DNA of 52,551 bases. Source: Candidatus Eiseniibacteriota bacterium. GTDB lineage: Bacteria > Eisenbacteria > RBG-16-71-46. Positions 27,001 to 36,000 of this stretch are shown here, in pieces. Every line of letters begins with the position of its first letter. Within the stretch, counting starts at the first letter, position 1. The DNA is taken from assembly GCA_044222065.1 (NCBI GenBank), contig JBGAOA010000027.1:1-52551 (forward strand), in the 5' to 3' direction. The position numbers were made by a program.

Positions 27001-30000
27001 CGCCTGCCGGCGACGATGCGGACGGAGCGTGGCCGCGCCGAGGCGCTGCGCCGCGCCGACACGTTGCGCGACTTCCTGCGCGCTCTCGGCCGCGAGATCG
27101 GCCGGCCCGTGCCCGAGGAGAAGCTGCGGGGCTGACTTCGGTTCCTCGGCACGTTTCAGAAACGCGGCGACGTCGATCTTCGTGACGAATCGGGCGCGCA
27201 CCCGTTCACACCATTGGACGGCCGCGCGGAGTTCGACCCGAAGCCTCTCTGTGAGGCGCGTGCGGAGGACGCATGAACACCTCGCCCGACACCCTTCTTG
27301 CTTCGCTCCTCGGTGGCGTGACGCACGGAATCGGCGAAACGGTGCCGCGAGTCCTGCGTCATTGGAGGGGCCGGCTCGTTCACGGCCGATCGAAGGCGCC
27401 GCTTCCCGAAGCGAAGAGCCCGCACTACTCCGAGCCGGACTTCGACTCCATCGAGGGCGCGCCGGACTGGTATCCGGTCCTTCGGTCCTACTCGAACGAC
27501 GGCCAGCACAAGGTCGTGCTCGACCTGGGTCCGCACTTCCTTCCCCTCGCGCCGCCGGGAGTCGTTCGCCTCGTTCTCTACAACATGCTCTCCGCCTCCG
27601 CGTGGCGTTGCGGAGACTACGAGCAGGCCTACCGCTTCGCGTCCGCCGGACTCCGCGGATGCAAGCACCCGATTCTCCGGCTCCGGCTGCTCTCGAATCT
27701 CGCGATCGCCCACAACCGGCGCGGCAACCGGGACCAGGCCGAGGCCGCGCTGCTGACGATCCTGAAGGCGGATGATCGGCACATGCTTGCGCTCTACAAC
27801 CTGCTCTGCATCGCCGCGAAGTACGAAGACACGGCGGCGTATTCGACGTGGGGTGGGCGCCTCGCGCGCGCCTACGAGTCGGCGTGCGCGGATCCGAAGT
27901 CCTTCCTCGGGAACTCGATCCTGTCGGACCCGGCGCTGGAGGCCTTTCGCAACCACGCCAGCTTCGCCGAATCGTTCCCCGCGCTCGCCGCGGAACGTGT
28001 GCGGGAGATGACGGGGCACGAGCGCTCCGGATTCACGAAGCACAAGCCGTTCATCGTGGCGATCGCGCTCGCGGCGCTGCTCGTTCTCGCGGGCGCTGCG
28101 GGCGCCGACATGTCGAACAGCTGACGCGAATCGACCGCGAACGCGCGACGGGCGTTCCGAACGGGCGCCCGCCCGCTCAGAACATCGACGCTTCGAGCTT
28201 CACGTCGGCGCGCGCCCACGCGCGCTTGAAGCGCTCGGCGACCGCCGCGGCTTCCTTCGTGCGGCCCTGCATCTCGAGCGCGCGCTGCAGTCCGAACAAC
28301 GACCAGCCGTTCTCGGGGTGGCGCAGCAGATCCTCGCGGTAGACGGTCTCGGCCTCGTGCGAGCGGCCGGCGACGAGCAGCTCCGCTCCGAGACGCTGGC
28401 GCACGGGCGAGTACCACGTCGGCGGCTCGTCGTAGTGCAGGCTGTCCTCGGCGGCGACGGCCGCCTTGAACGCCGCGATCGCCTCCTGCCGCCGCGTGCG
28501 CCGCCCCGCGATCTCGCCTTCGAGCGCGTGCACCGCGACGCGCAGCAGCGGCGCCGCGTAGTTGATGCTGATCATCATGTCGGCGGGAATGCCCGTGGCC
28601 GCCCGCCGCAGCGCCGCGAGGTGCGAGGCCGCGCCCGCCTCGTCCTGTCCGACGGCGGCGGCGAGACCCTGCGCGTAGTGCCACATCGCGCGCGAATACA
28701 CCTGCTCCTCGGGCGGCGCCTTCGTCGCCAGCAGCGCCTTCCACTTTCCGAAACGCAGCAGCGTCAGGAACTCGTACGTCGAGACGAACTGGATCATCGG
28801 CATCTGCGCGAGCACCGAGTCCGGGACGTTGCCGGCCATCTTGCGCGCCGCCGCGAGCGACTCGGCGCTGCGGCCCTCCATCATCGCGCAGAACCACACG
28901 AACTGGATGTTGTGGTTGTAGTACATGAGCGGGTAGAGGCCCTGCGGCTTCTGCTCGGCGATGTACTTCTCGTCCACCGCCATCGCGATCTGGTTGCGGC
29001 GCACCGCGTCGTCGTAGCGCCCGGTGCGCGCGTAGATGTGCGACGGCATGTGCACGAGGTGCCCCGCGCCCGGCACGAGGGCCTCGAGCCGCTTCGCCGC
29101 CGCGTTCGCGCGCTCCGGGTGCGGCGAGGCCTCGACGGCGTGGATGTAGAAGTGGTTCGCGCCCGGATGATCCGGCGCGAGCTTCATCGCGGTCTCGAGC
29201 GCCGCGAGCGCCTCGAGCGTTCCGGGATTCGGCTTGCCGTCGTCGCGCCACTGGTTCCACGGGTTCAAGTCGAGCAGCGATTCGCCGAAGAGCGCCCACG
29301 CGTCCGCGTCCTTCGGGTGCTTCTTCGCGAGCGCGCGCATCGCGTTCGCGTAGGCCGAGTCGAGTTCGGCGCGCGTCGAGCCCTTCGCGGCGTAGCGCGT
29401 CGCGAGTGCCGCGATCCACTCGCGCTCGAGCGCGCCCGCGTCGGCGGCGAGCGCCTGCGCCTTGCCGATCGCATCGAGCGCTTCGGCGCCCATCGCGTCG
29501 TCCATCGGCAGGTTGATGTTCGGCCCGTTCGCGTAGGCGACGCCCCACCACGCCATCGCGCAGCGCGGATCGAGCCGGGCCGCCTCGCGGAACGCGCGGA
29601 TCGCCTCGGCGTGATTGAAGCCGTAGCAGAGCACGAGGCCCTGGTCGAAGTAGCGCTGCGCTTCGGGCGACGCGGTCGTGATCGCACGATGCCACGAGCC
29701 GAGGTCGCCGTAGAGCGGCGGCGCGTCGGCGGGCGCGTCCGCGGCGGGCGGCATGGAGTGGTCGGCGAACGCCGGCGCTGCGGCGAGCGCGACGAGGCAC
29801 GCGAGGGCGAGTCGGCGCATGACACCTCCGAGGCGGGCGAGCGAGCGGAACGCGGAGATCAGCGCGGCAGTCTCACACGGAAGGCGGCGAGCCGGAAGCC
29901 GGATTCGTCGGCCGAGTCGGCCTCGCACGTCGCGTCGGCGGCGAGGAGCAGGCGCGCGAGCGTCTCGCGATCCGCCCACGTCTCGTCGGAATACGAGCGA

Positions 30001-33000: not shown

Positions 33001-36000
33001 GGGACGCATACCGCGCGGACGGCGACGGCGAGGTCTCATGAAGGGTTCCTGTACGAGCGCGATCGTGCGGGCGTCCGGATGGACGCGAGCGCGATGGCGC
33101 GCATGACTTCGTCGAATGCGTGCGCCGCATTCGCGGCAATCACGCGGCACGGCCCGCCGCGCGATGGGTTCGACTCGAAGCACTCCTCGAAGTTCGCCGC
33201 GACCGCGCCGTTCGGGGCGCAGGGCGACGACATCGATCGCTGGTTGCTCACCGGCGCGCCGACGTCACGCGCTGCAGTGGGACGCACCGTCTCGTGGTCG
33301 GACGCGACGTCCGTCCGGGATCCCCGTCGCGGCCGTATCGGCTCGTTCGACGCTCCCATCCGCACGGCCGGACGCACGAAGGTCCGACAGCGAGGCGAGA
33401 GGGGAACACGCGGGAGGATTTGTTCCTCGGAGTCCGCGGGCGCGCCTACGCGCGACTTCCGCTCACGACTCCGTCACTCACGGTGTGCGGCAGCATTATC
33501 GGCGGGCACCCGGCGAAAGTCCAGTGTCGAATCGCGGCCGGCGCGCCACGGGGTGAAATGCCTCAGCGCGCCGCGGCCGGCCGGCGGGCGAAGAGCGAGT
33601 CCGGGACCACGTACGGATAGCGCCCGACGAAGCCGCGCACGAGTCGCGCCTGGGCGCTGCGCGGCGGGTAGGAGCGCAGCATCGCGATCGCGCGCTCGAA
33701 GTCGTCGCGGATGCGGAGCCGCGCCGACTGCCCCGCGAGCCCGAGCCAGCCGATGGGCTGATCCGGCGCCCGCTCGGTCAGCAGCCCGAAGGCGCGGTGC
33801 GACGACTCGACGTCGCCCACGCGCAGCGCCGCGAGCCCCCACAAGATGAGGAGCCGCGGGTGCGGCGCGAGCGCGGCCGCGCGCGCCGCCGCGTCCGCCG
33901 CGCGCGGCCAGTCGCCGATGCGGAACGAGTGCGTGGCGAGGAAGTCCCACGTCATCGCCTGCGTGGCCGCGGGCCGCGCGGGCGGTCCGTTCACGTAGGC
34001 GCGCACTCGCGCGAGCCCGGCGGCGGTCGAGTGGTTGAGTGCGAGCCACTGGAGCGCCGGCACGAGCGCCGCGGCGATCAGCGCGGGAGCGAGCCGGCGC
34101 GGCACGGCGCCGCGCTCGATCGCGCGCGCGAGCGCGTACGCCGAGAGCAGCGCGAGCGCGACACCCGCGAACGCGAACACGTCCCAGTCGCGGAACACGC
34201 CCTGCTGCGGCATCACGAACACGAAGATCGGCGCGCACGCCGCGGCGAGCGTGCCGAACACGGCCCGCGCGCCGTCGTCGTCCGCCGCTCCGCCGGACGC
34301 GTCGCGCGGCGCGAAGGCGAGCGCGGCCGCGACGATCGCCCACGGCGCGAGCGCGAACACGATGTTCGCGACGTCGGCGGCGTGGACGAGCCGCTCGAAC
34401 GCGGGCGAAGGCGCCCCGGCCGTGGACCACGCGGGCCCGAGGTGGTGCGCGACGTCGAACGTCGCGACGAGCCTCGCGATGCGCGCGCCCGCGAGCGCAA
34501 GCGCGGCCGAAGCGAGCGCCGGCCCCGCGAGCCAGCGCCGGTTCGCGCGCTCACCCGCGTGCGCGCGCCACCCGCGCACCCACGCGACCGCGGCGAGCGG
34601 CAGGAGCACGACGCCGGAGCGATGGACGAACAACGCGAGCGCGACCGCGAGTCCCAGCGTGACGTGTCCGCGCCACTCACGGGCGACGCGCAGCGCCGCG
34701 TAGGCCGCGATCGCGACGAGCACGCACATCTCGCCCGAGGCCTTGCCGAGGCCGGTGAAGATCGTCGCGTAGCCGCCGCCGATCGCGCCCGTCACGAAGC
34801 ACCACGCCGCGGCGCCCCGCAGCGCGAGTGCGCGCGCCGTCCGCGCGGCGATCCACGCGAGCGCGGCCGCGTTCAGCGCGCCGAGCGCGCGCGAGTACGG
34901 CCCCGCGCGGTCCGGCGAATCGAGCGCGAGCCACTCGGGCAGCGCGCGGTGCAGGAACACGTCGAGCGGCATCGCCTGGAAGAAGCTGCCCGCCGAGATC
35001 ACGTCGCTGCCGGGCGAGCCCTGGCGCATCACGAAGTCGCCGACGAACCACAGCCGGTCGTCGAGCAGGAGGACCGCGGCCCCGCAGGCGAGCGCCGCGA
35101 GCCACGGCGGCGGCGGCGCGAGCCGCTCGGGCGGCCGCGCGAGCGCCTCTCCGAGCGCGGGCACGAGCAGCAGCGCGAGCGCGAGCGTCGGCAGCAGGCC
35201 GAGCGCCGCGGGCAGGAACGCGTGCGGCGTGAAACCCCACGCCCACATCGAGGGCCCGAGCCCGAACGCGATCCGCGCCGCGACCGAGACGAGCAGCGCG
35301 GCGAGCACGAGCGCACCGGCCGCTGGCGGAGTCGAGCCGTCGTGCGCGCCCGCGATCGCCCTGCGCGGAGACGCGCTGCGTTCGGCGCTCATGCCGGCGG
35401 TCGCGGCGCCGCGGCGTCGCGCGTCAGCCGCCCCACTCGCGATCGCGCACGCCCGCCTTCGCGTTCGCCGCGCGCGCCATGACGAACAGCAGGTCGGCGA
35501 GGCGATTCAGGTAGGCGACGAGCCGCGGCTCGACCGCTTCGCCGTGACGCAGCGCCACGACGCGGCGCTCGGCGCGCCGGCACACGGTGCGCGCGCGGTG
35601 GAGTTCGGCCGCGAGCGGCGAGCCGCCCGGCACGATGAAGCGCGTCAGCTCGGGCAGCTCGCGGTCGAGCCGGTCGATCGCGTGCTCGATCGCGGCGACG
35701 TCGGCGTCCGAAACACGGCGCAGCTTCTCGAGCGCCTTCGGATTCTCGGCCGCGAGTTCCGCCCCGATCGAGAACAGCTGCGACTGGATCGCGTCGAGGT
35801 CGCCGGCGAACCAGCGCTCCGCGTCGTGCGTGAGCGCGACCCCGAGCGTGGCGTTCAGCTCGTCCACGGCCCCGTAGGCCTCGACGCGCGGATCGCTCTT
35901 CGCGACCCGCCGGGCGCCGATCAGGCCCGTCGTGCCGTCGTCCCCGGTGCGCGTGTAGATCTTCATGGGGCGGGAATGTAGCGGAACGGCGCGGCCGCCG

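Follow-up and report, generated by a model that had tools for sequence, protein, structure and literature searches.

What does a Rho protein do once it has lost the domain by which Rho recognizes RNA, and does it do so on behalf of the membrane protein encoded beside it? The question is raised by P0001 (g01683), a 430-aa Rho paralogue encoded at 31747..33039 (stop codon within the end coordinate) on the minus strand of the window, that is, the whole stretch of 52,551 nucleotides analysed here; all features located below lie on the same strand. A preliminary description of this DNA regarded the protein as a neofunctionalised translocase that is always paired with, and works with, the adjoining membrane protein P0002 (g01682). 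Our analysis retains the first part of that reading, a conserved paralogue with an R/G/P-rich tail in place of its N-terminal domain, and abandons the dedication to the neighbouring protein.

P0001 is a genuine gene. Its ATG (33037..33039) is followed by a rare AGA codon and preceded, a few bases 5', by an AGGAA Shine-Dalgarno-like stretch. The start codon, and with it the tail, had previously been considered doubtful. Alignment of the family loci answers this doubt: the ATG-AGA and the sequence MRxRRRRPRG are kept in 11 of 12 family loci as well as in the window, and conservation sets in sharply at the ATG, the leader 5' of it being unconserved. On this comparative evidence the start codon is secure. 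The leader itself is non-coding and fills the measured gap of 523 nt between P0003 and P0001 (33040..33562); a promoter scan found one sigma-70-like site within it at 33523-33495, against 0.2 expected, and an Rfam search of the leader returned no match. RNA-library contigs, which possibly represent DNA carry-over and hold no strand information, extend over tail, start codon and leader (33210-33473 and 33362-33581 over the latter) and are counted as weak support. Several features of the locus might be taken as signs that the gene is decaying or wrongly called, a shortened leftover of Rho in which GC-rich DNA that is never translated merely reads through in frame as a tail: GC3 is 0.82 in the tail versus 0.96 in the core, start prediction from codon bias selects residue 112, and one relative (G139) has an odd upstream frame and no MRxRRRR start. 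This explanation is largely refuted and retains hardly any probability, as the ATG-AGA and the arginine blocks are conserved at the protein level across the family next to an unconserved leader, a single tblastn frame holds across residues 1-430 in most family loci, the core is strongly constrained, and the 120 database clusters listed all carry PF00006 alone, with tails of 31-171 aa (median 109).

Rho_N and the OB fold make up the primary RNA-binding domain of Rho, the OB fold reading YC-rich rut sites. In agreement with the preliminary description, P0001 lacks both; a Pfam search matched ATP-synt_ab alone (residues 170-373), and neither Rho_N (PF07498) nor Rho_RNA_bind (PF07497), the OB-fold primary site, gave a match at E <= 0.1. 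The NCBIfam Rho models together match residues 144-426 only, NF006886 scoring 378.1 bits over residues 147-425 (cut-off 315) and TIGR00767 scoring 368.8 bits, below its cut-off of 509.45, and E. coli Rho (1pv4) can be aligned to residues 148-427 only. The canonical Rho that had also been described in this genome lies on another contig (C7), holds Rho_RNA_bind, scores 710.6 bits over model positions 2-414, and is about 51% identical to the P0001 core. When the whole genome was searched in six frames, Rho_RNA_bind matched this canonical rho alone, which rules out an RNA-binding domain concealed by a frameshift upstream of P0001. P0001 is a genuine, conserved Rho paralogue whose whole primary RNA-binding N-terminal domain has been lost.

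Codons 131-430 (31750..32649) encode the connector helix and the RecA-type ATPase core, as judged by alignment to E. coli Rho. The core contains Walker A, Walker B, the catalytic Glu, the Arg valve, the Q-loop, the R-loop and the Arg finger; loop names and E. coli residue numbers were carried over to P0001 through this alignment. None of the 140 relatives differs at the Walker A K/T pair, D210-E211-R212, D265, R269 or R366-K367. The secondary RNA-binding site is likewise kept in the P0001 family, with the Q-loop substitutions K283R and T286S and the R-loop substitution K326R all invariant (140/140 relatives). Within the 300 core positions the paralogue clade and canonical Rho are told apart by only 3, and the AF2 model of the core has a pLDDT of 77-97, except for block 291-300 at the Q-loop (58). 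With both its motor and its secondary RNA site preserved, P0001 is unlikely to have lost RNA function itself.

Codons 1-130 (32650..33039) encode an Arg/Gly/Pro-rich tail for which AF2 gives no secondary structure and a pLDDT of 38-53 before residue 130. Three arginine blocks within it are conserved, an N-terminal MRPRRRRPRG, a central RRRRRRxRGxRP and a core-proximal GRRGRR...RG. Across the 120 relatives the pooled tail composition is 19% R, 25% G, 15% P, 10% Q and 0% K; the spacers between the blocks vary in length, while the N-terminal and central poly-Arg blocks are conserved and lysine is absent. Structure prediction and alignment together describe a tail that is disordered yet constrained. 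A motor with a short Arg-rich tail is also found in six 50%-identity clusters outside the P0001 clade.

To define presence of the paralogue in the 205 genomes besides that of the window, a best match of E <= 1e-95 was required. About 112 of the 205 contain it by this measure: 79 of 88 in the window's own family (f1), 8/10 in f2 (including G073, a genome flagged unpublished), 12/13 in f4, 5/6 in f6 and 8/8 in f13. None of the 80 genomes in the other 13 families has a match at this threshold. The paralogues of the five families form one clade with a support of 99, on a stem of 0.52 changes per column. On this phylogeny the paralogue is an old, clade-wide and vertically inherited gene of the five families. 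Canonical Rho occurs alongside it in the window's genome, in G106 and in G157, and the two coexist wherever completeness permits checking. The paralogue may be dispensable, because nine of the 88 family genomes are without a paralogue-level match under this stricter threshold, among them G120 (94% complete) and G122 (96% complete).

P0002, whose gene (29859..31742) begins 4 nt past the P0001 stop codon, is a 627-aa polytopic membrane protein. The proposal that it is related to GT-C glycosyltransferases stands: its AF2 model (mean pLDDT 90.6) had as top Foldseek matches ArnT (5f15, E 8.5e-9, TM-score about 0.47-0.49), the oligosaccharyltransferase catalytic subunits AglB and PglB, DPY19 and AftA, and the best 33 PDB matches are all GT-C enzymes. 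The predicted structure is that of a GT-C membrane fold. The first extracytoplasmic loop, immediately following helix 1, has an invariant W41 and D42 and a nearly invariant E43, and this acidic D42/E43 motif is presumably the GT-C catalytic motif. No Pfam or NCBIfam family, including the curated GT-C families PMT_2 and PMT, matches P0002 itself. We reproduced the earlier counts of homologues in 17 of 206 genomes and of 24 database relatives (P0002 itself included), three of which carry PF13231 or PF02366 and one of which is named RgtA/B/C/D-like.

The claim that the two genes are always paired does not hold. Among the 17 genomes that have a homologue of P0002, 10 (the window counted) have the paralogue immediately upstream of the GT-C gene. 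In three others the contig breaks off at the GT-C gene, and in one of these (G086) the sole detected paralogue is on a different contig with no GT-C gene within 1.5 kb downstream. The remaining four (G164, G001, G005 and G098), which hold more distant GT-C homologues, have no Rho within about 1.5 kb upstream. Viewed from the paralogue, the GT-C gene follows in just 10 of 42 scorable family genomes and is absent there in 32. Because the linked cases all fall within one family, the repeated adjacency represents inherited synteny and not independent evidence. These counts bear on the original idea, a neofunctionalised translocase that would serve the GT-C membrane protein exclusively, whether by acting together with P0002 or by specifically controlling its expression. 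Co-transcription of P0002 with P0001 in the window's genome is probable, and in favour of the idea one may cite the 4-nt gap, the shared gene order in ten genomes and RNA-library contigs that span the junction (X17, 31560-31777; X15, 31619-31787). The linkage may also be old, because GT-C-linked lineages branch early within the family on the paralogue tree, at weakly supported nodes, and in another family G015 has GT4 glycosyltransferases and a weak PMT_2-like protein downstream of the paralogue. However, the genes downstream at G080 and G015 show no hhalign relation to P0002, the RNA-site residues of P0001 are intact, and a GT-C family of 17/206 genomes, missing after the paralogue in most scorable relatives, contrasts with a paralogue that is clade-wide in five families. 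Furthermore, the neighbours of the paralogue vary between families and no partner gene is conserved across them. We consider a dedicated role of P0001 in the service of the membrane protein very improbable; P0002 is an accessory, optional neighbour outside the mechanism of the paralogue.

Comparison with described Rho types delimits what is unusual in P0001. Canonical Rho (E. coli type; Type 1 of Moreira et al. 2024; TIGR00767/NF006886) shares with it the C-terminal RecA-type ATPase, at about 51% identity, together with the catalytic residues, Q-loop, R-loop and Arg finger; P0001 differs in being a second copy that has neither Rho_N nor an OB-fold primary site and carries a 130-aa Arg-rich disordered tail instead. 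The short second Rho (Group B / Type 4; NF041509 'Rho, short form'; paralog_Rho2) is also a second copy without Rho_N, but short forms keep the Rho_RNA_bind OB fold (30-51 bits) that P0001 lacks. NF041509 matches P0001 with 331.9 bits against a cut-off of 628, over model positions 88-358 of 360 only, placing it outside this family. Genomes from other families of the phylum (G030, G204) encode short forms, which join the ATPase-only clade in a loose grouping with a support of 93. The M. tuberculosis Rho with its NID, the Bacteroides thetaiotaomicron Rho with its IDR, and Type 2 Rho resemble P0001 in having an Arg-rich disordered N-terminal sequence on a Rho motor. In those proteins the disordered region is added to a retained OB-fold primary site, whereas in P0001 it is all that remains. 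Recruitment of most Rut sites by M. tuberculosis Rho is reported to depend on the insertion domain (1759 sites, versus 47 without it; PMC13650167), which would serve by analogy as a precedent for RNA recruitment by a disordered Rho sequence. The closest architecture is already known. The supplement of Moreira et al. 2024 (NAR, PMC11347177) catalogues 28 'Rho-like ATPase domain' sequences from complete genomes, with a Rho ATPase domain only, preceded by 30-240 residues without a recognised domain (for example Vulgatibacter, 429 aa, ATPase 145-428; Opitutus, 412 aa, ATPase 127-410), and classes them as 'not functional Rho factors' with no further analysis. P0001 belongs here by architecture, its ATPase domain alone being detectable with Pfam and NCBIfam models. 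Compared by description only, the P0001 clade is distinguished from that class as large, old and constrained, with conserved arginine blocks. The word 'Eisenbacteria' does not occur in the main text of that paper.

As to function, we put at about an even chance that P0001 is a second, rut-independent Rho-type ring ATPase, loading onto RNA by way of its arginine-rich tail and serving as a translocase or as a terminator. P0001 would assemble as a Rho-like hexamer in which six polycationic tails replace the N-terminal-domain crown and capture RNA electrostatically, with little sequence preference. The captured RNA would be passed to the Q- and R-loops of the central channel, and ATP-driven 5'-to-3' translocation would follow. 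Such a ring would choose its substrates independently of rut sites, structured GC-rich transcripts for example, and would work beside canonical Rho in termination or in RNA/R-loop remodelling. Against loading through the tail stands the view that E. coli Rho requires its primary site for loading. The placement of ATPase-only sequences among non-functional Rho factors by Moreira et al. 2024 and the possible dispensability of the paralogue also speak against this reading. The same sequence data would also fit hetero-hexamers, and this too counts against a stand-alone ring: the paralogue would co-assemble with canonical Rho into rings with fewer primary sites and with Arg tails, tuning or dampening general Rho-dependent termination with no independent action. 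The nearly canonical core, with its three clade-specific positions and about 51% identity to the Rho of its own genome, and the coexistence of the two proteins are consistent with such mixed rings, a possibility that Moreira et al. 2024 (PMC11347177) raise for two-rho species. With a stem as long as 0.52 and 50% divergence, the interfaces may themselves have diverged, and we regard mixed rings as unlikely. Should tail loading be true, a folded primary RNA-binding site is not needed by a Rho ring motor. The wider proposition, that a Rho ring can load on RNA and act using six arginine-rich disordered tails only, and that the phylum would possess, in addition to canonical Rho, another route for terminating transcription or remodelling RNA that is independent of rut sites and has distinct targets, is put forward tentatively, at somewhat below even chances.

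The surroundings of the paralogue in the window's family have a housekeeping-type backbone of a GreA-domain protein, a cobalamin adenosyltransferase, the paralogue and EF-P. The PduO-type cob(I)alamin adenosyltransferase of the window (35424..35966) is 69% identical to its counterpart in G090, which matches PF01923, and in 9 of 12 family contexts this co-directional gene precedes the paralogue. The earlier placement of the locus between two TPR proteins was borne out. Between the adenosyltransferase gene and P0001 lies P0003 (33563..35392), a membrane protein of 609 aa whose C-terminus gives a weak TPR match (TPR_2, 18 bits, below the cut-off); hhalign detected no link between it and the P0002 family, none of the other paralogue loci examined had it as a neighbour, and the Atlas clusters nearest to it are membrane-plus-TPR hypothetical proteins. 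On the other side, 38 nt past P0002, a 547-aa TPR-like protein with weak TPR matches is encoded (28177..29820); the GT-C loci of the other genomes, with about 1.5 kb of flank on each side of the GT-C match, contain nothing that matches it. Inspected by eye, the N-terminus of this 547-aa protein resembles a signal peptide.

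The 430-residue Rho paralogue P0001 (33039-31747, minus strand) carries a single Pfam family, ATP-synt_ab at residues 170-373, with no match to Rho_N or Rho_RNA_bind at E <= 0.1. The NCBIfam Rho models cover only residues 144-426; NF006886 scored above its cut-off (378 bits), TIGR00767 scored under its own (368.8 bits, cut-off 509), and the 'short form' model NF041509 reached 331.9 bits (cut-off 628) over model positions 88-358 only. E. coli Rho (1pv4) could be aligned to residues 148-427. The same genome encodes a full canonical Rho (710.6 bits) on contig C7, and a family search of the complete genome in all six frames found Rho_RNA_bind in this canonical gene alone; an RNA-binding domain hidden 5' of P0001, for instance by a frameshift, is therefore ruled out. 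Together, the Pfam, NCBIfam and six-frame results bear out the preliminary description of a second Rho without Rho_N and the RNA-binding domain. An anti-phage defence role was rejected, PADLOC having yielded only an 18.5-bit match at the P-loop level.

The main caveat attached to that description was the start codon. An ATG-AGA start encoding MR(P/S/Q)RRRRPRG is present in 11 of 12 loci from the window's family, with a purine-rich stretch a few bases 5' of the ATG, and the leaders, 141-829 nt long, are not conserved among the 12 loci, so that conservation sets in at the ATG. The conserved ATG-AGA and the non-conserved leaders uphold the start at 33039, and this onset rules out a longer reading frame from a GTG at 33183. 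Residues 1-430 were found by tblastn in one frame in most family loci. A search of the 523-nt leader, which fills the minus-strand gap between P0003 and P0001, for a conserved RNA element returned no Rfam match and no conservation among the 12 loci. A codon-bias start prediction was set aside as uninformative because the Gly, Arg and Pro codons of the tail raise GC2; codon composition gives no information for the tail.

Among 120 database relatives the tail is 31-171 residues long (median 109), with a pooled composition of 19% R, 25% G, 15% P and 10% Q and with lysine absent. Three arginine blocks are conserved, separated by spacers of variable length. AlphaFold2, run on a 33-row alignment, predicted no secondary structure ahead of residue 130, with pLDDT values of 38-53 there and of 77-97 in the core, except for the block 291-300 at the Q-loop (58).

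Two details of the 5' end deserve mention. The rare codon AGA is the second codon of the paralogue in the window (33037-33034, minus strand) and, among loci L058-L069, in all 11 family loci with an MRxRRRR start; it stands amid DNA of 70-75% GC and may be a translation-initiation feature. The locus L064, from a single-contig genome (G139), has no MRxRRRR start, and 5' of the core its frame reads as a stretch rich in Ala and Arg, perhaps owing to a frameshift in the tail or to faulty assembly.

Motor residues were located through the alignment of P0001 to E. coli Rho, and the residue names used here for the motor, Q-loop and R-loop are those of that protein. None of the 140 relatives shows a substitution at the Walker A Lys and Thr, D210-E211-R212, the Walker B Asp, R269 or R366-K367. 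Changes in the Q-loop and R-loop, the secondary RNA site, are limited to K283R, T286S and K326R, and fixed differences between the paralogue and 43 canonical Rho proteins occupy only 3 of 300 core positions. Judged by its sequence, the motor of P0001 is intact.

A tree built from 83 C-terminal domains unites 21 paralogues, drawn from families f1 (that of the window), f4, f6 and f13, with one metagenomic representative in a single clade (SH-aLRT 99, stem 0.52), and the canonical Rho of the window genome groups among the domain-bearing Rho proteins. Support stays at 99 when three f2 sequences are added; the f2 paralogues are likewise ATPase-only with Arg-rich tails. Presence was scored by a proxy (best E <= 1e-95) checked on 23 fetched loci, and a stricter first look in this search makes the resulting counts floors. 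The paralogue is present in at least 79 of 88 genomes of f1, at least 8 of 10 of f2 (one of them, G073, flagged unpublished), at least 12 of 13 of f4, at least 5 of 6 of f6 and 8 of 8 of f13; the remaining 13 families, with 80 genomes between them, have none that reached the proxy. All 120 database clusters listed carry PF00006 alone. At 50% identity the clade is a single cluster, and its next-best matches are again ATPase-only, six of these clusters having short Arg-rich tails. P0001 is a genuine Rho paralogue, conserved, ATPase-only and bearing a disordered tail rich in arginine.

Second Rho copies of about 366-381 residues were seen in other families, in L081 (G030, 1275-2372) and L082 (G204, 1139-2281). 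Both sampled copies belong to the short Rho type: Rho_N is missing, and the OB fold is retained but scores weakly. We do not claim that the ATPase-only clade is sister to the short second Rho of f7 and f18; the two group only loosely (support 93).

Canonical Rho coexists with the paralogue wherever the genomes allow judgement. Five family genomes with a single hit were checked for the paralogue as sole Rho: a match to Rho_RNA_bind is present in G106 (99% complete) and in G157, and none was found in G155 (90% complete, 6% contamination), G099 (74%) and G138 (54%), three assemblies in which a missing match is no proof of absence. With a canonical Rho alongside and a core so close to it, modulation of Rho through hetero-hexamers is the main rival explanation of P0001, and we consider it rather improbable. 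Most likely, with about an even chance of being right, P0001 would still be an RNA translocase, one that loads through its arginine tail.

Target choice by Rho is attributed to the primary RNA-binding site in the OB fold. Here, a large, old and constrained clade has retained the motor and discarded the primary site, with a normal Rho alongside. This constitutes a natural experiment on whether the primary site is necessary for ring loading, on what a disordered arginine tail can do alone, and on whether bacteria have two channels of termination or RNA surveillance.

The clade would also correct a published verdict of 'non-functional' on ATPase-only Rho-like proteins: Moreira et al. (2024) tabulate 28 'Rho-like ATPase domain' sequences and call them not functional. 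Their Type 4 / Group B Rho differs from P0001 in that it has no Rho_N and still possesses the RNA-binding domain. According to PMC13650167, M. tuberculosis Rho depends on a disordered insertion for most Rut sites. No characterised Rho paralogue without an RNA-binding domain was found in the Creative Commons PMC and bioRxiv literature, and term searches of a 2025 review (PMC12360218) located no characterised ATPase-only Rho in the passages returned.

In transcription order on the minus strand, the locus comprises a PduO-type cobalamin adenosyltransferase (35966-35424), the 609-residue membrane protein P0003 with a weak TPR match (35392-33563), P0001, the 627-residue membrane protein P0002 (31742-29859, 4 nt after P0001) and, 38 nt further, a 547-residue TPR-like protein whose N-terminus resembles a signal peptide (29820-28177). 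The family backbone consists of a divergent protein of about 900 residues with C-terminal GreA/GreB domains (11 of 12 contexts and the window), the adenosyltransferase (9 of 12 and the window) with the paralogue next, and a convergent EF-P gene (8 of 12 and the window). P0003, P0002 and the TPR protein are additions to this backbone in the window genome, and in other families the paralogue has different neighbours.

P0002 matched no Pfam or NCBIfam family. Its predicted structure is confident (pLDDT 90.6), every one of its top PDB matches is a GT-C enzyme (with ArnT at E 8.5e-9), and in its first loop D42 is invariant and E43 nearly so; its earlier assignment as a relative of GT-C glycosyltransferases therefore stands. 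The claim that the second Rho is always paired with such a protein does not. Among the 17 of 206 genomes with P0002 homologues, 10 have the paralogue directly upstream, 3 have loci cut by contig ends and 4 have no Rho within 1.5 kb upstream. Seen from the paralogue, the GT-C gene comes next in only 10 of 46 family genomes with the locus, against 32 where it does not and 4 cut loci. GT-C-linked lineages branch early in the paralogue tree, the window falls inside a clade of 24 rows that is free of GT-C, and at least four changes of linkage are forced; the linkage may be old, with many later losses. As the linked cases all belong to one family, they provide no independent evidence of pairing, and a dedicated partnership of P0001 with the GT-C protein seems very unlikely. 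A link to envelope glycosylation does not hold as a rule. With hhalign, neither P0003 nor the variable genes that lie downstream at G080 and G015 proved homologous to the P0002 family. At L075 (G015, another family; 1333-6952) the genes that come after the paralogue in the same orientation encode two GT4 glycosyltransferases, a membrane protein with a weak likeness to PMT_2 (21 bits, below cut-off) and a HEAT-repeat protein.

The leader of P0001 contains one sigma-70-like site. Short contigs of four sludge metatranscriptome runs, without strand information and with possible DNA carry-over, lie on the leader, start codon and tail, on the junction where the paralogue gives way to the GT-C gene, and on both membrane genes.

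Further observations concern the surroundings. Two ORFs of about 280 codons (27273-28124 and 24747-25595, plus strand) have coding-like GC3 and no Pfam family. A glutamine-dependent NAD synthetase (40160-43051, minus strand), called at 963 residues, contains CN_hydrolase and NAD_synthase domains and about 400 residues outside both without a family match. In the 925-residue divergent neighbour of the paralogue (36096-38873, plus strand), the last 150 residues form the GreA/GreB N- and C-terminal domains and the first 760 or so match no family. At L059 (G128) the place of P0003 in the window, after the adenosyltransferase gene and ahead of the paralogue, is taken by a 717-residue Ser/Thr kinase with TPR repeats (4282-6435).
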